DNA of 8,342 nt from Nostocaceae cyanobacterium (lineage in GTDB: Bacteria > Cyanobacteriota > Cyanobacteriia > Cyanobacteriales > Nostocaceae): assembly GCA_035298905.1 (NCBI GenBank), contig DATGXQ010000622.1, forward strand, positions 1 to 8,342. Reading direction: 5' to 3'. Both the position numbers and the translations under genes were made by a program. Below the pieces are notes generated by a model that worked only from the letters and a program-made list of their open reading frames with translations, was not told the DNA's origin and ran no database searches. Below are positions 2,511 to 8,342 of this stretch, one piece after another. Numbering within the stretch: position 1 is the first letter of the stretch; each line of letters begins with the position of its first letter.

Positions 2511-3233
2511 TTAATTAAATTGTTGCCACTTGACAAGATAAACAGGAACTTTCACCCAATAATTATTTTGATCAGGTACTTGAACTGTAATTACTTTTCT
2601 CACCCCTGGATCTGCTTCAATCCAAACATTATCACCTATATATCCTAAAGTATGTACACCATCCTGAGTTACTGCAATATCTCCTTTTTGGATTTTTGTA
2701 TGATCCAATTCATTAATGCTATTAGCACTCATAAATACTTTGGTTTTATCTCGATAACCTTGGGCTAAAGCTTGAGCAGAAGTATCAAACCACCAAAGAG
2801 AAAATCCTTCTCTAATTAGTTTTGGGTTTAGGGAAATGAAACCATATTTTAAATTAGCATTGACTAAACCTTGTCTGACTAAACCTGAACAGTCAATCCC
2901 GACTCTATTTTCTCCTCCCCAAACATATTTAGTTCCATTAAAAGCTTGCATTTCTTGGACGTAATACTCTCTGAGGGTGTTTGTATCGGCTGCATTTCCA
3001 GGTAAAATCATAATTAGGCTAATTATGAATGTGAGCAATAAATAAGTGAAGCGAATAATTTTATATTGCCAGAATAACCATAATCCACCAAATAACAGCC
3101 AGAGAAATAATAAAACTGTGGCTAAACGTAAAATTCCATAGCTGATAGGATAAAACAGTAAAATAATCAAGAAAAACCAAGACCAACTCCATAAATGTAA
3201 TAAATAGCGACGCTTGATAATTTTTAATGTCAT
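2511..3233 (-). CDS. Membrane-anchored NlpC/P60 (C40) family peptidoglycan endopeptidase
   Basis: The N-terminal 80 aa or so are strongly hydrophobic, suggesting about three TM helices (WSWSWFFLIILLFYPISYGIL..., VLLFLWLLFGGLWLFW, YLLLTFIISLIMILPG). The catalytic domain has YVWGGENRVGIDCSGLVRQ (Cys motif) and GDIAVTQDGVHTLGYIGDNVWIEA (His motif). I place the start at the ATG (3231-3233, complement), which is preceded by GGGAGA. The ORF-track start at 3248 is a TTG. Confidence 0.85.
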   Translation of the reverse strand: MTLKIIKRRYLLHLWSWSWFFLIILLFYPISYGILRLATVLLFLWLLFGGLWLFWQYKIIRFTYLLLTFIISLIMILPGNAADTNTLREYYVQEMQAFNGTKYVWGGENRVGIDCSGLVRQGLVNANLKYGFISLNPKLIREGFSLWWFDTSAQALAQGYRDKTKVFMSANSINELDHTKIQKGDIAVTQDGVHTLGYIGDNVWIEADPGVRKVITVQVPDQNNYWVKVPVYLVKWQQFN

Positions 3234-3442
3234 TTTGTTATCTCCCAAAACTGTTGGATTTTATTCAACAAAGTAGATTTTCTGGTTTTTGATGCGTCAG
3301 GTGAGGCATCCTATGCACTGAAACTTATACAAAAATCAAAAGTTAAATTTCGGCTAATTGATGAATTATTTCTCATCCCTATTCACCAGTCACTAATCAC
3401 CAATCTGTTGTATCCTCAAAAAAGTTGTTTAGTTTTTAGTTT

Positions 3443-4312
3443 ATGTCTGCATCTCAAAGATTACGGGAATTATTAGCGCGTCCAGAAATTATCATTATTC
3501 CTGGTGTTTATGACTGTCTGAGTGCTAAACTGGCTCAAAAGGTGGGTTTTGAAGTAGCAGCAACTAGCGGTTTTGGTATCGCTGCTTCGACTTTGGGTTT
3601 ACCAGATTATGGCTTTTTGACTGCGACGGAAGTGCTTTATAGTGTAGGAAGGATTGCACAATCTATTAATATTCCTTTGATTGCAGATTTAGATACAGGT
3701 TATGGAAATGCTTTAAATGTGATGCGGACTGTTAAAGATGCGGTGAGATTGGGGTTAGCTGGGGTAATTTTGGAAGACCAGGAATGGCCGAAAAAGTGCG
3801 GACATTTTGAGGGGAAACGGGTAATTTCTGCTTTGGAACATGCGGGAAAGATTCGTGCTGCGGTGGATGCTAGGGGGGATAGTGGGTTGGTGATTATTGC
3901 GCGGACAGATGCACGGGGGGTTTTGGGTTTGGAAGAAGCGATCGCTCGTGGACAATTGTACATTAATGCGGGTGCAGATGTCTTGTTTGTGGAAGCACCG
4001 CAATCGGTGGAAGAGTTACAAATTATCGCTGCGGCTTTCCCCAATACTCCCTTAGTCGCTAACATTGTCGAAGGTGGGAAAACTCCCGAAATCTCCACCG
4101 CAGATTTACAAAAATTGGGTTTTAAGATTGTCTTCTTCCCCCTCACCACATTAATGGCTGCAACGGAAGTGATTAGTGCTAGTTTACAGCATCTTAAAAC
4201 ACAGGGAACAACCGCTAACTTTCCCGGTTTGATGAATTTTCGAGATTTTCAAGAATTAATCGGTGTTCCCCAATATCTGCAAATTGAAAAAAAGTATACT
4301 GGTGATTGGTGA
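3443..4312 (+). CDS. Isocitrate lyase/PEP mutase superfamily enzyme (2-methylisocitrate lyase / oxaloacetate decarboxylase-like; often annotated as carboxyvinyl-carboxyphosphonate phosphorylmutase)
   Basis: Supporting blocks: PGVYDCLSAKLAQKVGFEVAATSG, IPLIADLDTGYGNALNV, and GVILEDQEWPKKCGH carrying the ICL-type K-[KR]-C-G-H signature (3791-3805), plus IIARTDA and GADVLFVEAP. The stop TGA is formed inside the GGTGATT heptamer array. Confidence 0.9.
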   Translation: MSASQRLRELLARPEIIIIPGVYDCLSAKLAQKVGFEVAATSGFGIAASTLGLPDYGFLTATEVLYSVGRIAQSINIPLIADLDTGYGNALNVMRTVKDAVRLGLAGVILEDQEWPKKCGHFEGKRVISALEHAGKIRAAVDARGDSGLVIIARTDARGVLGLEEAIARGQLYINAGADVLFVEAPQSVEELQIIAAAFPNTPLVANIVEGGKTPEISTADLQKLGFKIVFFPLTTLMAATEVISASLQHLKTQGTTANFPGLMNFRDFQELIGVPQYLQIEKKYTGDW

Positions 4313-4502: not shown

Positions 4503-5156
4503 ATGGTTAATTCACCACCAATTTTAGAAACTATTCTCACCGATTCTTGGGTTGCCGTAACTTGGGAAGATTTTCTCACATTTGCAGATGACCCAATGTT
4601 AGTAAATGGTAGATTTTATTATGATGAAGGTTCTATGATGATTGAAATATCTCCGCTAGGTTCTGCCCACGGTCAAATTCATAGTATTACTGCCAATTTA
4701 ATTATCTTATATGCCACAATCAAAAATATTACCATCAAAGGATTAATCAATACCAGTTTTAGGAAAATAGGAATTAGAGGCTGTCAGCCAGATATGGCTT
4801 TTTATATTGGCAATAATCTGAATTTACCTCCTCGCAATAATGCACCAGTTAATTTAGATAAAGTAGATCCACCCACTTTAGTCATAGAAATCGCCGCTTA
4901 TTCCTTAGAAGATGACACAACCCGCAAACAGAAACTTTATCAAAGATTAGGAGTAGCAGAGTATTGGGTAATTGATGTGAATAAAAATCGAGTAATTGCC
5001 ACTTGTTTAGATGCTCATACAACTATACCAATTCAAGAATCACAGGTTTTACCAGGCTTAAAGATTGAGTTAATTGAATTAGCTTTGCAAAAGTCGCAAA
5101 CTGAAGATGATGGTGCAATTAATAGATGGTTATTGTCAAATTTTGGTCAGAATTAA
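4503..5156 (+). CDS. Uma2 family (DUF820) PD-(D/E)XK putative endonuclease
   Basis: Family hallmarks are present: QPDMAFY (catalytic Asp region), PTLVIEIAAYSLEDDTTRKQKLY (E-x-K region) and RLGVAEYWVIDV. Length is 217 aa, with an ATG start and TAA stop. Confidence 0.9.
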   Translation: MVNSPPILETILTDSWVAVTWEDFLTFADDPMLVNGRFYYDEGSMMIEISPLGSAHGQIHSITANLIILYATIKNITIKGLINTSFRKIGIRGCQPDMAFYIGNNLNLPPRNNAPVNLDKVDPPTLVIEIAAYSLEDDTTRKQKLYQRLGVAEYWVIDVNKNRVIATCLDAHTTIPIQESQVLPGLKIELIELALQKSQTEDDGAINRWLLSNFGQN

Positions 5157-5170
5157 TTATAGTAGAATTC

Positions 5171-5205
5171 AGGAGTCAGGAGTCAGTAGCCAGAAGTTAG
5201 GAGAC
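5171..5205. repeat. Degenerating STRR heptamer array (AGGAGTC AGGAGTC AGTAGCC AGAAGTT AGGAGAC)
   Basis: Direct reading. There are two perfect copies followed by three diverged copies. Confidence 0.8.
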
Positions 5206-5220
5206 ATTTTCGGGAATGAA

Positions 5221-5250
5221 TGTAGAGACGTTCCATGGAACGTCTCTACA
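5221..5250. repeat. Perfect 30-bp palindrome tgtagagacgttcc|atgg|aacgtctctaca (13-bp stem, 4-nt loop); possible terminator or dispersed palindromic element
   Basis: The first 15 nt are the exact reverse complement of the last 15 nt. It lies 65 nt after the Uma2 stop and is followed by aaaggtttt, so there is no immediate U-tract. That makes the intrinsic-terminator assignment only tentative. Confidence 0.85.
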
Positions 5251-5282
5251 AAGGTTTTGATATTATGTAATATTATTTCCCT

Positions 5283-5311
5283 TTGACGATCGCCAATACA
5301 TGTTGTATAAA
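5283..5311 (+). promoter_or_regulatory. Sigma70-like promoter candidate for the NLR-like locus: TTGACG - 17 nt - TATAAA
   Basis: TTGACG is at 5283-5288 and TATAAA at 5306-5311, with a 17-nt spacer. The predicted TSS is near 5318. This gives about 30 nt of leader to the ATG at 5349, which has a GAGG Shine-Dalgarno at 5340-5343. Confidence 0.35.
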
Positions 5312-5348
5312 GTGATCATCTAGCAGAATGCCATCGGGTGAGGTGGGG

Positions 5349-5813
5349 ATGGAACCTTTAAGCGCTGGTGCAGTAGCCTTAGTTGGCTGGTTATTTGGTA
5401 AAATCATTGACTGGACAGCCGAAAAAGCCTTGGATGCTGGTGCATCAGGGGTATTACGGTTAATCAAAAGCAAGTTACCGACGGCTAAAGTAGCAAAGGT
5501 GGCTGCATTACCTCAAAGTGAGCGAGACGACATTTTAGAAGCTGAGTTAGTGCAAGAAGTGGAACAAGTAGCAGCAGAAAATCATGAACTGCGGACAGCT
5601 ATAGAAGCATTTGGCAATTATTTTCAGCAAGTGGCAGAAAAGAATCCTGAAATTAAAGAAAAGTTTGCGGCTTATGTGCAAAATTGCCAAGGTTTAATTA
5701 TTACAGGTGATAATAATACAATAGATAGTCCTACTATTATCCACGAAAATAAAGGAATCAATATTTCTGGTCGTGCCAAGATTGATAAACTAATTATTCA
5801 AAAAGATACTTGA
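5349..5813 (+). CDS. Hypothetical protein, likely the N-terminal (effector-like) module of the downstream NB-ARC/TPR protein: hydrophobic glycine-zipper helix, acidic helical region, two beta-strand pseudo-repeats
   Basis: The longest ORF starts at the ATG at 5328. The ATG at 5349 is preferred because of the GAGGTGGGG Shine-Dalgarno 5 nt upstream. The protein starts MEPLSAGAVALVGWLFGKIIDW. It ends at TGA 5811-5813, which is in the same frame as the following NB-ARC ORF. Confidence 0.6.
   Translation: MEPLSAGAVALVGWLFGKIIDWTAEKALDAGASGVLRLIKSKLPTAKVAKVAALPQSERDDILEAELVQEVEQVAAENHELRTAIEAFGNYFQQVAEKNPEIKEKFAAYVQNCQGLIITGDNNTIDSPTIIHENKGINISGRAKIDKLIIQKDT
5811..5813 (+). other. Single in-frame TGA (context TGA-C) separating two co-phased ORFs (5328-5810 and 5814-8339)
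   Basis: 5328, 5811 and 5916 all fall in the same codon phase. Codon-by-codon reading of 5814-5915 shows 34 sense codons and no ATG or GTG. Confidence 0.95.
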
Positions 5814-5915
5814 CTGGAGTCGTCTGGACGGGGTACGGACAAAGTTAAAACCCCAAATAATTTTAGTTTTCCTGGTACTCCTCACTTTGTCGGTCGAGAG
5901 AGAGAGTTAAACTTA

Positions 5916-8342
5916 TTGCATGAGAAATTACAGACACCTGGTGCTGTGGCTATTTCCGCAGTTGCGGGGATGGGTGGAGTCGGGAAAACTGAATTAGCAA
6001 TCAAATATATTAAACTGCATCAAGATAAATATCCCGGTGGTGTTTGTTGGTTTAATGCGCGAGAACAAAATTTAGCTGTGGAAGTCGTGCGCTTTGCTCA
6101 GTTATACATGAATTTGCAAGTCCCGCAGCAGAACTTCCGAGGAGAACAGTTAAGCTTAACGGAACAGGTGGCTTGGTGTTGGCAACATTGGCAACCAGCG
6201 CAAGGACTGGTATTAGTAATTTTAGATGATGTCACCGATTTAGAATTTTGTCGAGATTTGCTACCCCAAACAAACCGCTTTCGGGTGGTGATGACTACCA
6301 GATTACATCTTCATCCCGATGTTGAGGAAATACCTCTGGATGTGCTACCAGAGGACAAAGCATTAGAGTTATTGACACTTTTAGTCGGTGAGAAAGTGCA
6401 ACGGGAAGCGGAAACAGCGAAAGAGTTGTGTGCTTGGTTGGGATATTTACCCTTGGGTTTAGAGTTGGTGGGGCGGTATTTAGCCAAGAAACCCCGATGG
6501 ACTTTAGCGAAAATGTTAGAACGGCTCAAAGTTCAAAGTGTGGAAGATGAAGCGCTGAAACCGGAACTGTTCAAGACTTTGAGTACAGCCCAAAGGGGAG
6601 TTAAAGCGGCTTTTGAGTTAAGTTGGCTAGAACTTGCACCGATGACTCAGCGAGTAGGGGAATTGTTGAGTTTATTTGCTTTAAGTGTGTTTGCTTGGGA
6701 GTGGGTAGAAGCAGCGAGTAATTTACTGAGTTGGGCTGCTATTGATGTGGAAACAGCCAATGAGCAACTTTATGAGCGCCATTTAATTAATATTGGGGAT
6801 GAGATAGGAGAGTATTGGCAAATACATCCTTTGATTCGGGAGTTTTTGGGGTTGAAGTTGCGGGAAAGGGAACAAGCGCAGGAGGTGAAAACGGCTTTTG
6901 CTGCTGTGTTTGTGGAGATTGCTAAAACGATTCCTAAGTCAATCACTCAAGAGGTTGTTAAGTCGGTAGAAAAGGCGATTCCGCATTTAGCGAGAGTTGC
7001 AGACAATATAATTGATGCCGTTAGTGATGAGAATTTAGTTTGGCTTTTTTGGGGTTTAGGAATATTTTATGAAGGAAAAGGATTTTATACACTAGCAGAA
7101 CCTTGGCGTAAACAATGTGTATCAGTAGTAAAAAATCGCTTGGGAAAAGAGCATCCCGATGTTGCTACCAGTTATAACAATTTGGCAATGCTCTACTATT
7201 CTCAAGGTAAGTATACGGAAGCTGAACCACTTTATTTACAAGCCTTAAAACTGTTACAATCCCTACTTGGACAAAAACATCGTCATGTCGCCACCAGTTA
7301 CAACAATCTAGCATTACTTTACCAATCTCAAGGCAAATACAAAGAAGCAGAACCTCTTTTAATTAAAGCATTAGAAATAAGAAAACACCTGCTAGGACTA
7401 GAACATCCAGATGTTGCTACCAGTTATAACAATTTGGCAGCATTATACATATCTCAAGGCAAATACAAGGAAGCAGAACCTCTTTTAGTTAAAGCATTCA
7501 ATCTGTGGAAAAATCTACTAGGACAAGAACATCCTAATGTGGCCACCAGTTACAACAATCTAGCATTACTTTATAAATTTCAAGGCAAATACAAAGAAGC
7601 AGAACCTCTTTTAGTTAAAGCATTAAATCTGTGGGAAAATCTACTAGGACAAGAACATCCTAATGTAGCTACTGGTTATAACAATTTGGCATTACTCTAC
7701 AATTATCAAGGTAAATATGAGCAAGCAGAGCCACTTTTAATTCAAGCATTAAATCTGTGGGAAAATCTGCTAGGACAAGAACATCCCGATGTTGCCACTA
7801 GTTACAACAGTTTGGCATTACTCTATTTTTCTCAAGGCAAGTATACAGAAGCTGAAGAACTTTATATCAAAGCGTTGCAAATGAGAGAACGCTTGCTAGG
7901 ACAAGAACATCCCGATGTTGCTACCAATTATTACAACTTAGCAAGACTGTACAAATCTCAAGGTAAGTACACAGAAGCTGAAAAACTTTATATCAAAGCA
8001 TTGCAAATGAGAGAACGCTTGCTAGGACAAGAACATCCCGATGTTGCTACCAGTTACAACGATTTGGCAAAACTCTACTATTCTCAAGGTAAGTATACGA
8101 AAACTGAAGAACTTTATATCAAAGCATTGCAAATGAGAGAATGTCTGCTAGGGCAAGAACATTCCGATGTCGCTTCCAGTTACAATAATTTAGCATCACT
8201 CTACTACTCTCAAGGCAGGTACACGGAAGCTGAACCACTTTTTGTTAAAGCTTTAGAAATTGCTGAACGCAGTTTAGGGGTAAATCATCCCAATACAATT
8301 ATTATCCGTGACAATCTCCAACTGTTGCGCGAGATGTTGTAG
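5916..8342 (+). CDS. NB-ARC (STAND/NLR-like) NTPase fused to a TPR (TPR_10/12, kinesin-light-chain-like) array. The ORF-track start is a TTG, and homology continues upstream to 5814
   Basis: Motifs: Walker A GMGGVGKT (5967-5990), Walker B LVLVILDD (6207-6230), RVVMTTR, GLPL-type GYLPLGLE (6441-6464), MHD-like HPLIRE (6825-6842), then 42-aa TPR units from 7149. The conserved pre-P-loop motif FVGRERELNLL lies at 5886-5918, mostly upstream of the only candidate start. Stop TAG is at 8340-8342, the window end. Confidence 0.9.
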   Translation: MHEKLQTPGAVAISAVAGMGGVGKTELAIKYIKLHQDKYPGGVCWFNAREQNLAVEVVRFAQLYMNLQVPQQNFRGEQLSLTEQVAWCWQHWQPAQGLVLVILDDVTDLEFCRDLLPQTNRFRVVMTTRLHLHPDVEEIPLDVLPEDKALELLTLLVGEKVQREAETAKELCAWLGYLPLGLELVGRYLAKKPRWTLAKMLERLKVQSVEDEALKPELFKTLSTAQRGVKAAFELSWLELAPMTQRVGELLSLFALSVFAWEWVEAASNLLSWAAIDVETANEQLYERHLINIGDEIGEYWQIHPLIREFLGLKLREREQAQEVKTAFAAVFVEIAKTIPKSITQEVVKSVEKAIPHLARVADNIIDAVSDENLVWLFWGLGIFYEGKGFYTLAEPWRKQCVSVVKNRLGKEHPDVATSYNNLAMLYYSQGKYTEAEPLYLQALKLLQSLLGQKHRHVATSYNNLALLYQSQGKYKEAEPLLIKALEIRKHLLGLEHPDVATSYNNLAALYISQGKYKEAEPLLVKAFNLWKNLLGQEHPNVATSYNNLALLYKFQGKYKEAEPLLVKALNLWENLLGQEHPNVATGYNNLALLYNYQGKYEQAEPLLIQALNLWENLLGQEHPDVATSYNSLALLYFSQGKYTEAEELYIKALQMRERLLGQEHPDVATNYYNLARLYKSQGKYTEAEKLYIKALQMRERLLGQEHPDVATSYNDLAKLYYSQGKYTKTEELYIKALQMRECLLGQEHSDVASSYNNLASLYYSQGRYTEAEPLFVKALEIAERSLGVNHPNTIIIRDNLQLLREML
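7149..8339 (+). repeat. Coding tandem repeat: 9 complete 126-bp (42-aa) TPR units plus a terminal partial unit
   Basis: Units start at 7149, 7275, 7401, 7527, 7653, 7779, 7905, 8031, 8157 and 8283 (partial), each opening with (E/K/N)H(P/R/S)xV/T. A 52-nt stretch is identical between 7875-7926 and 8001-8052. Confidence 0.95.

Follow-up and report, generated by a model that had tools for sequence, protein, structure and literature searches.

How a bacterium produces an NLR-like sensor whose open reading frame (ORF) offers no conserved start codon is the question raised by the 3' part of the window analyzed here, i.e., the whole 8,342-nt contig DATGXQ010000622.1 (assembly GCA_035298905.1) from a Nostocaceae cyanobacterium. 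An upstream ORF (5328-5813, 161 codons as called) closes with a TGA at 5811-5813, the next base being C, and an ORF encoding NB-ARC and TPR domains extends in the same frame to a TAG at 8340-8342. A first-pass annotation, made from the window alone, had reported that only this TGA separates the two ORFs, which the sequence bears out, and had considered a recent pseudogene, an assembly error, a newly split gene pair or a leaky stop codon. The comparative analysis favors the last of these options, and more strongly than was then proposed: programmed UGA read-through probably yields, from one reading frame, an abundant effector with an amyloid-type tail (Bell-BASS) and a rare, longer protein in which this effector is fused to the sensor (Bell-BASS-NB-ARC-TPR). 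Read-through is favored because the sensor would otherwise have neither a start nor its signaling motif, and because the UGA-C context is accompanied by a dedicated conserved hairpin, with no conserved start codon.

A lone in-frame stop in an otherwise intact 3-kb frame has, at first sight, the appearance of a recent nonsense mutation or of a sequencing or assembly error. Loci were fetched by NB-ARC similarity from species-representative genomes (21 loci) and metagenomes (80 loci); 34 junctions of the kind found in the window were present in them, 33 of which were aligned, and five loci from finished genomes were added to this set. The stop codon is TGA in 34/34 junctions and in all five finished-genome loci, with the effector ORF in frame every time, and 29 of the 33 aligned junctions have a C at the +4 position. 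The effector has a single close homologue (63% identity), which is found at a syntenic locus of another Nostocaceae metagenome-assembled genome and in an independent Logan assembly. In this syntenic orthologue, the effector ORF also closes with TGA, in frame with the NB-ARC ORF, and the sequence 3' of the TGA is nearly identical (TGACTGGA(C)TCGTCTGGACGGGGTACGGACAAAGTTAA). Four further Bell homologues, picked from finished genomes of cultured strains, all proved to have the TGA layout, which gives five loci in five genome records, the finished genomes being AP018248, AP018180, AP018194, AP018172 and CP019636. The taxa carrying this layout comprise Brasilonema, Microseira, Rivularia, Nostocales HT-58-2, Tolypothrix PCC 7101, Nostoc NIES-2107, Scytonema HK-05 and Calothrix NIES-2098. 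It had been suggested to align orthologous loci and ask whether position 5811 is a sense codon in them and whether a fused gene is the norm; the codon is TGA in the syntenic orthologue as well as in all junctions with the TGA layout.

Both halves of the locus are, as far as codon comparison tells, under purifying selection: between the window and its orthologue, dN/dS is 0.36 for the Bell region, 0.37 for the linker, 0.14 for NB-ARC (dS 0.33) and 0.29 for the TPR region. A pseudogene or a sequencing artifact has thus a negligible probability, as the same stop is present in an orthologue from a different sample, in the Logan assembly, in 30+ loci and in five finished genomes, while dN/dS is well below 1 on both sides, both ORFs are intact and a truly decayed copy (L061) looks different. 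With the TGA and its context conserved across genera and independent assemblies, the first two options of the first-pass annotation were rejected. The third one, a newly split pair, was wrong on timing, the arrangement being old and widespread.

Ten classical Bell-NLR pairs from the same set served as a control. Their Bell ORFs end with TAA (6), TGA (2) or TAG (2), and the frame of Bell relative to the NLR is random (3/3/4). Fisher tests comparing TGA-type with classical loci gave p = 2.5e-7 for the stop codon and p = 3e-6 for the frame, two values to be read with the caveat of shared ancestry.

Other unconventional routes across the stop were ruled out. Frameshifting is excluded since both ORFs share one frame, and ribosomal hopping of the T4 gene 60 type since the codon preceding the stop is variable and a matching landing codon is lacking. 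Likewise, reassignment of the genetic code does not hold because other genes of the same loci end normally in TGA, and the TTG at 5810-5812, which overlaps the stop, is in the wrong frame to serve as a start.

The region from the effector start to the end of the sensor is organized as follows.

5340-5348, forward strand: Shine-Dalgarno-like GAGGTGGGG, directly 5' of the effector ATG; the orthologue (L001) has the same GGTGAGGTGGG ahead of its ATG.
5349-5810, forward strand: effector ORF (154 aa), with a predicted Bell-type helical domain and a C-terminal amyloid-signaling (BASS-like) tail.
5679-5810, forward strand: effector tail, with two tandem N/Q/G/I-rich motif copies, QNCQGLIITGDNNTIDSPTII (5679-5741) and HENKGINISGRAKIDKLIIQKDT (5742-5810).
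5811-5813, forward strand: in-frame UGA followed by C, proposed read-through codon and normal stop of the short product.
5814-5821, forward strand: 8-nt spacer CUGGAGUC separating the stop codon from the hairpin.
5822-5840, forward strand: conserved RNA hairpin with the stem GUCUG / CGGAC (arms 5822-5826 with 5836-5840) and the loop GACGGGGUA.
5841-5854, forward strand: A-rich AAAGUUAAAA, then a C-run (5851-5854), possible partner of the loop G-run (5830-5833) in a tentative H-type pseudoknot, whose third loop would be A-rich.
5814-5915, forward strand: 34-codon linker LESSGRGTDKVKTPNNFSFPGTPHFVGRERELNL, whose end is formed by the FVGRERELNL helix opening the NB-ARC domain (FVGRE at 5886).
5898-6545, forward strand: NB-ARC NTPase domain (Pfam PF00931, E 2e-11, residues 29-244 after the TGA).
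5916-5918, forward strand: TTG taken as start by the ORF finder, probably a plain Leu codon.
7011-8339, forward strand: TPR sensor region (TPR_10/TPR_12), of which 7143-8260 is a tandem array; the ORF stop is TAG 8340-8342.

The start of the effector is likely ATG 5349 (MEPLSAG...) and not position 5328, as had been given for the upstream ORF, because GAGGTGGGG stands upstream of this ATG, the product matches the NCBI protein P0001 (154 aa) and relatives have a conserved MEP start.

No comparable start is apparent for the sensor. It had been observed that ATG and GTG are absent from the 34 codons after the TGA, that the sole usable start is the TTG at 5916 and that this TTG cuts off an FVGRE-type motif, and each of these observations was confirmed: FVGRE (5886) lies 27 residues ahead of the P-loop (5967), the same motif precedes the P-loop in homologues, and the Pfam NB-ARC match starts at residue 29 after the TGA, i.e., upstream of TTG 5916. 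This TTG is not conserved, the orthologue having TTG CTG vs TTA TTG in the window. The linker itself shares 88% protein identity with that of the orthologue and is homologous to the linker which follows the N-terminal motif in classical NLRs. Across the aligned junctions, there is no in-frame ATG, GTG or TTG from the TGA to FVGR in 21/33 cases and, in two of the loci (L011 and L016), none is found even up to the P-loop Met. The first codon after the TGA is CTG (17), CTA (10), CTC (2), GTG (2), GAA (1) or AAG (1); being mostly a Leu codon with synonymous variation, it follows the pattern of an elongation codon and not that of a start. Moreover, while in classical relatives the NLR opens with an ATG and its own copy of the motif, TGA-type loci have the motif only upstream of the TGA. 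In the window, no amyloid-type motif occurs in the 34 codons between the TGA and NB-ARC, and the motif can join the NLR only via TGA read-through.

Database annotations of these sensors are often incomplete at their N-terminus. Among the 120 closest NB-ARC database entries (P0003-P0122), 63 are truncated: the annotated start falls within the NB-ARC domain in 49 of them (at the P-loop Met in 19), within the linker in 11 and at the codon after the stop in three. This is probably a systematic mis-annotation caused by the TGA junction; some entries may be contig-edge partials.

An alternative way to translate the sensor is termination followed by reinitiation. Ribosomes would stop at the UGA, be held or paused by the hairpin and restart at a non-canonical linker codon, leading to an NB-ARC-TPR protein devoid of the amyloid motif, with another route to Bell-BASS. 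Tight coupling between Bell and NLR genes is indeed typical, 57% of the pairs being at most 10 bp apart and 42% overlapping (Dyrka et al., bioRxiv 10.1101/2020.01.06.895854), and some NCBI genes are annotated from the codon right after the stop (e.g., the L001 gene at 10400, P0006, P0008 and P0080). However, this codon is CTA, CTC, GAA or AAG in 14 of the 33 junctions, no start codon or Shine-Dalgarno sequence is conserved anywhere in the linker, and amino-acid conservation begins at the very first codon after the TGA. Reinitiation would also produce a sensor without the motif that defines signaling in every classical relative, and it appears unlikely.

The RNA that follows the stop codon also speaks for read-through. 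The spacer has a constant length of 8 nt in 33/33 aligned junctions. It is followed by a hairpin consisting of a GC-rich stem of 5 bp and a loop of 8-9 nt with invariant G residues, which is the sole structure predicted by RNAalifold on the junction alignment. The stem is paired in 98.8% of the cells; 0/500 shuffles reach that value or the covariation score, and slid registers stay at or below 40%. Compensatory changes are found at two pairs, 22-38 (UA 19, CG 11, UG 2) and 24-36 (CG 21, GC 6, UG 4, UA 1). On the sense strand, 16 cells are G:U, whereas there is a single C:A cell and one C:U cell, both in L077. Frequent G:U together with the near absence of C:A on this strand points to a hairpin acting as RNA. 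A covariance model built from the junction alignment (R1) and used to scan 617 kb matched only at such junctions and always on the plus strand, with scores of 53-75 bits on the finished-genome junctions. It additionally retrieved one new junction (L050:7025-7080) and one decayed copy (L061). A scan of positions 5300-6200 against Rfam (E <= 10) gave nothing relevant.

The two loci retrieved by R1 are also of interest in themselves. L050 has two TGA-hairpin junctions about 4 kb apart on one contig (2947-3003 and 7025-7080), i.e., tandem TGA-type systems. In the decayed copy (L061:379-434), the hairpin is broken and the downstream ORF, of 49 aa, is without NB-ARC.

Further evidence comes from loop indels. 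In the window and L003 and, independently, in L036, the loop has gained 1 nt, which is offset by the loss of 1 nt in the C-run ~15 nt downstream. As a result, DKVKT replaces AKLNP in the local peptide of the window, and both the nucleotide string and the overall frame are preserved. Such compensated indels indicate a constraint on the RNA sequence itself as well as selection for the frame that leads from the stop across the hairpin to NB-ARC. The same C-run could extend the hairpin into a pseudoknot. In this candidate structure, 87.9% of the cells are paired, pair 29-52 being GC (26), AU (2), GU (2) or CG (1), and compensatory cases of the pseudoknot type are found in L008 (CGG with CCG) and in L045 and L100 (AGG with CCU). 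The minimum free energy fold of the window pairs GGGGU with ACCCC.

A conserved hairpin could also fulfill a role unrelated to translation, either as an RNA-processing or stability element or as a DNA recombination site for effector cassette swaps, in which case an internal TTG or GTG would serve as the start of the NB-ARC protein. In the NB-ARC tree (a quick neighbor-joining tree without support values), TGA-type NLRs are intermingled with classical ones, and nucleotide conservation is kept even where the frame differs. In addition, the modules upstream of the same junction comprise at least 12 tail motifs unrelated to each other and two classes of effectors (Bell and, in L036 and L042, alpha/beta-hydrolase-like), a variety which argues for cassette exchange at that point. 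Nevertheless, a purely non-translational function leaves unexplained the TGA with its +4 C, the constant frame and the frame-compensated loop indels. The internal TTG and GTG codons are not conserved, and G:U pairs occur on the sense strand only, as expected for RNA. This explanation therefore appears improbable, and more so than reinitiation; the cassette may be both a read-through signal and a recombination joint.

Several loci illustrate the diversity upstream of the junction. In L036:1-869 and in the upstream ORF of L042, an alpha/beta-hydrolase-like effector (GDIIFVHGLAGHSW..., GIVFL(S/A)TPH(T/N)G(A/S)HLA) takes the place of Bell. Both effectors have a "...NQNTTIENQNITQN(L/F)" tail before the same TGA-hairpin, and this tail motif is common to the Bell-type L039 and L079. 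In L008 (1077-1460), the TGA-hairpin is followed by an insert of ~77 residues, which repeats part of the upstream Bell C-terminus and has its own motif NLPQGPNPSVNIQTQINSIY, and then by the normal linker. This insert looks like a recombinant of a TGA-type and a classical N-terminus.

The geometry of the junction is also reminiscent of a bacterial selenocysteine insertion sequence (SECIS), in which a UGA is followed ~20 nt downstream by a hairpin with invariant loop G residues. The UGA could hence encode selenocysteine or another specially delivered residue, with the hairpin being SECIS-like. However, no homologue has a Cys at the UGA position, where classical Bell proteins end, the Rfam scan of the region was without match and the site is located in a disordered linker without redox context. 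The selenocysteine-decoding trait has not been detected in Cyanobacteria (PMC1794560), and this possibility is considered highly improbable.

Several points weigh against read-through. All the evidence is of one kind, sequence comparison, and the junctions are homologous by descent, so that counts such as 34/34 do not represent independent events. The stem has only 5 bp and single-sequence folding energies are ordinary (z = -0.26 to -0.63 in three of four sequences), which means that support for the hairpin is comparative (covariation) only. For the candidate pseudoknot, the covariation score is reached by 4/500 shuffles and slid registers still pair at 65-69%, which is weak. Some in-frame GTG or TTG is present near the NB-ARC N-terminus in 12 of the 33 junctions, including that of the window, whose start-like codons are TTG 5916 and a GTG eight codons ahead of the P-loop Met. 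L077 (2956-3012) has lost the 3' arm of the hairpin and yet retains the TGA and an intact NB-ARC ORF; having a TTG at codon 7, this locus may have switched to independent initiation. Finally, we know of no established structure-stimulated stop-codon read-through in bacterial chromosomal genes, and literature searches for such a case turned up none.

The effector N-terminus, MEPLSAGAVALVGWLF (MEPLSAGAVA), corresponds to the "MEPIS" N-terminal motif shared by Bell, Hell and Bab, which are membrane-targeting cell-death domains (bioRxiv 10.1101/2024.11.07.622273). Bell domains have been described as helical domains of ~100-140 aa in which the first helix is hydrophobic, position 2-3 is occupied by an acidic residue and the "MEPIS" motif is present (bioRxiv 10.1101/2020.01.06.895854; bioRxiv 10.1101/2024.11.07.622273). 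A profile of 25 such effector ORFs retrieved 539 homologues, the best 120 of which are all 123-148 aa long and nearly all start with MEP[LVAI][TS]. The AlphaFold2 model of the effector, obtained from a 122-sequence alignment, has six helices (residues 6-116) and a disordered tail (residues 117-154) and is of low confidence (predicted local distance difference test, pLDDT, 58.8). No family was assigned to the effector ORF in Pfam, NCBIfam or PADLOC scans, and no curated hidden Markov model exists for the Bell domain; the effector profile had no meaningful match in the PDB, and Foldseek searches of the PDB with the model returned nothing at E < 1. The tail motif copies resemble the motif of the classical pairs L004, L005 and L006 and ENWQGINIKGG... 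motifs. In L004, for instance, the Bell tail (...SQGIITTGGTVTINQPNLYFGQK) and the NLR N-terminus (MNIENSQGIITTGGKVDIHNPTLNF) share the motif. Pseudo-repeats on the Bell side have been reported (Dyrka et al., bioRxiv 10.1101/2020.01.06.895854). Its N-terminal motif, its length, its context and its membership of the profile family mark the product of the upstream ORF as a Bell-type membrane-targeting effector, whose tail is predicted to be amyloid-signaling (BASS-like). The first-pass annotation had postulated an N-terminal module here and had recognized neither a Bell domain with such a tail nor the hairpin.

The downstream half is, according to its motifs and domain matches, a STAND NTPase with TPR repeats. 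NB-ARC motifs follow each other in the expected order, GMGGVGKT, LVILDDV, MTTR, GYLPLG and IHPL being found at residues 52, 134, 160, 210 and 337 after the TGA; the P-loop GMGGVGKT is encoded at 5967-5990, Walker B (LVILDDV) at 6213, MTTR at 6291 and GYLPLG at 6441. The TPR region matches Pfam TPR_10 (E 5e-138) and TPR_12 (E 9e-134). The in-frame repeats, described earlier as intact, are a real TPR array (7143-8260) with a period of 126 nt and 8.9 copies according to TRF. PADLOC gave generic TPR matches only for the sensor. Because a Bell-type effector with a motif tail adjoins a STAND NB-ARC/TPR protein, the locus can be assigned, by its gene content, to the known Bell/BASS-NLR kind of amyloid-signaling system.

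The length of the TPR array differs between close relatives. The ORF has 842 codons in the window vs 801 in the orthologue, which is 41 aa shorter, i.e., about one 42-aa repeat. Similarly, L104 and L105, from near-identical Tolypothrix-type genomes, have 646 vs 966 open codons after the same junction. These differences suggest repeat-mediated expansion, contraction or truncation.

Of the three stop codons, UGA is the leakiest, and a hairpin located 8 nt past a stop codon sits at the mRNA entrance when this codon is in the ribosomal A site. In bacteria, a UGA with C as its next base is well documented to terminate inefficiently (PMC5289835), and misreading of UGA as Trp occurs in E. coli and Salmonella (PMC7918605). 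In the mechanism proposed for the window, ribosomes would initiate at ATG 5349 and, for the majority, terminate at UGA 5811, releasing a 154-aa protein composed of a Bell membrane-targeting domain and an amyloid-forming tail. Because of weak termination at UGA-C and of the hairpin, possibly extended by the pseudoknot, at the mRNA entrance, a minority of ribosomes would decode the UGA, probably as Trp, leading to a Bell-BASS-NB-ARC-TPR sensor of ~997 aa. Both products would carry the identical amyloid motif. Following ligand binding, the sensor would oligomerize and nucleate the amyloid fold, templating the abundant short effector and ultimately causing membrane damage. We infer read-through, its rate, the inserted amino acid, amyloid templating and the cell-death or defense output.

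An architecture of this kind exists in nature: two loci, L051 and L053, encode a fused Bell-NLR as one ORF without a stop, with an N-terminus that matches the Bell profile with an hhalign probability of 92.5%. The idea that the ancestral unit was a single protein of about 1004 codons is more doubtful: fused proteins do exist in these two loci but are not the norm, as illustrated by the short length of the best 120 Bell homologues.

The locus resembles classical Bell/BASS-NLR pairs of filamentous cyanobacteria, in which a small Bell protein with a MEP start and an N/Q/G-rich C-terminal motif is encoded collinearly and immediately 5' of an NB-ARC-TPR protein, and close relatives in the same NB-ARC clade are classical pairs. 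It differs from them by a sensor without its own start codon and motif copy and by an effector ORF in frame, with a conserved UGA and hairpin in between. Neither the study of Dyrka et al. (bioRxiv 10.1101/2020.01.06.895854) nor the Bab/Agp paper (bioRxiv 10.1101/2024.11.07.622273) mentions read-through, stop codons or frameshifts. Since the former selected pairs by matching motifs in annotated proteins (bioRxiv 10.1101/2020.01.06.895854), sensors whose motif precedes a stop would have been missed. The predicted read-through product is also similar to the "all-in-one" Bell-NLR architecture noted by Dyrka et al. (bioRxiv 10.1101/2020.01.06.895854) and to fungal HeLo/HELL-NLR proteins, as effector, nucleotide-oligomerization domain (NOD) and repeats would be in one polypeptide. 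In contrast to all-in-one proteins, the free effector would, owing to the stop, be the main product and the fusion a minor one, and the amyloid motif is kept between the effector and the NOD.

Parallels can be drawn with well-known recoding and signaling systems. Retroviral gag-pol read-through, as in murine leukemia virus (MuLV), involves a stop codon, an 8-nt spacer and a pseudoknot, and UGA-C(U) contexts are found in alphaviruses and plant viruses. The junction shares with these viral signals a predicted leaky stop in a UGA CUN context, an 8-nt spacer, a GC-rich 3' structure with a possible pseudoknot and two predicted products with a common N-terminus, made at a fixed ratio. Unlike in MuLV, it is located in a bacterial chromosomal gene translated by the 70S ribosome with RF2, the stem is much smaller, the pseudoknot is weakly supported and the role as a stimulator is putative. 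In phage Q-beta, the A1 protein is a read-through product of the coat gene at a UGA in E. coli, minor, essential and extended at its C-terminus. Whereas A1 derives from a phage gene without a known dedicated downstream hairpin, the present junction belongs to a cellular immune-type locus with a conserved RNA element. In the HET-S/NWD2 system and other fungal pairs of this kind, the NLR shares a short amyloid motif with a membrane-targeting executioner and templates it. While the fungal pairs rely on two genes and two motif copies that have to co-evolve, sensor and effector would both be served here by one copy of the motif in the DNA. The type of system is known, and the junction appears to be new, targeted literature searches having found no earlier report of a TGA-hairpin junction.

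The surroundings of the locus were also inspected. On the forward strand, the window begins with an AAA ATPase gene (87-761; PF00004) and a gene for a Pvc16_N/DUF4255 protein (904-2166; PF14065, E 3e-41). Genes of both types typically occur in clusters for phage-tail-like contractile injection systems, and the present cluster presumably extends past the window start. They are followed by genes for an NlpC/P60 protein with hydrophobic N-terminal segments (2511-3248, reverse strand), a PEP-mutase/isocitrate-lyase family protein (3443-4312, forward strand) and a Uma2 endonuclease (4503-5156, forward strand), which are syntenic with L001 6550-9804. In L001, other genes stand upstream of NlpC/P60 in place of the AAA ATPase and Pvc16_N/DUF4255 genes, and an extra SMI1_KNR4 gene lies between Uma2 and the Bell gene. 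XisH/XisI, two ParE-type toxin modules and then HetP are encoded 3' of the orthologous NLR (L001 12915-15333), forming surroundings rich in defense genes and mobile elements. Promoter and terminator scans of 5100-6100 gave counts at chance level, with one promoter-like match at 5782-5810.

In its general form, the proposal is that of a portable recoding cassette, made of UGA-C, an 8-nt spacer and a hairpin that may extend into a pseudoknot, by which one cistron would give, via programmed read-through, an abundant amyloid-tailed executioner and a rare NLR sensor with the same motif; we consider its chances evenly balanced. Gene callers split or truncate such genes and, as R1 identifies the junction specifically, their annotation can be corrected. 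The element is also carried by cultured strains with finished genomes, namely, Tolypothrix tenuis PCC 7101, Nostoc carneum NIES-2107, Scytonema sp. HK-05 and Calothrix sp. NIES-2098. Should read-through be confirmed, bacterial cellular genes, where programmed read-through is considered rare, would gain a widespread, conserved and experimentally tractable recoding signal, possibly of a new class. If the proposal is true, this would be the first example, in bacterial chromosomal genes, of programmed stop-codon read-through assisted by an RNA structure.

With read-through, it would become clear how cyanobacteria make a large group of their NLR sensors at all. With one DNA copy of the motif for sensor and effector, no co-evolution of two copies would be needed, and effector and motif modules could be swapped upstream of the same junction. 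It would also constitute a new means of fixing both sensor-to-effector stoichiometry and motif identity in an NLR system. Any weakening of UGA termination, by RF2 depletion, stress or phage-encoded suppressor tRNAs, would then raise sensor dosage, and the read-through rate itself could arm or trigger the system.

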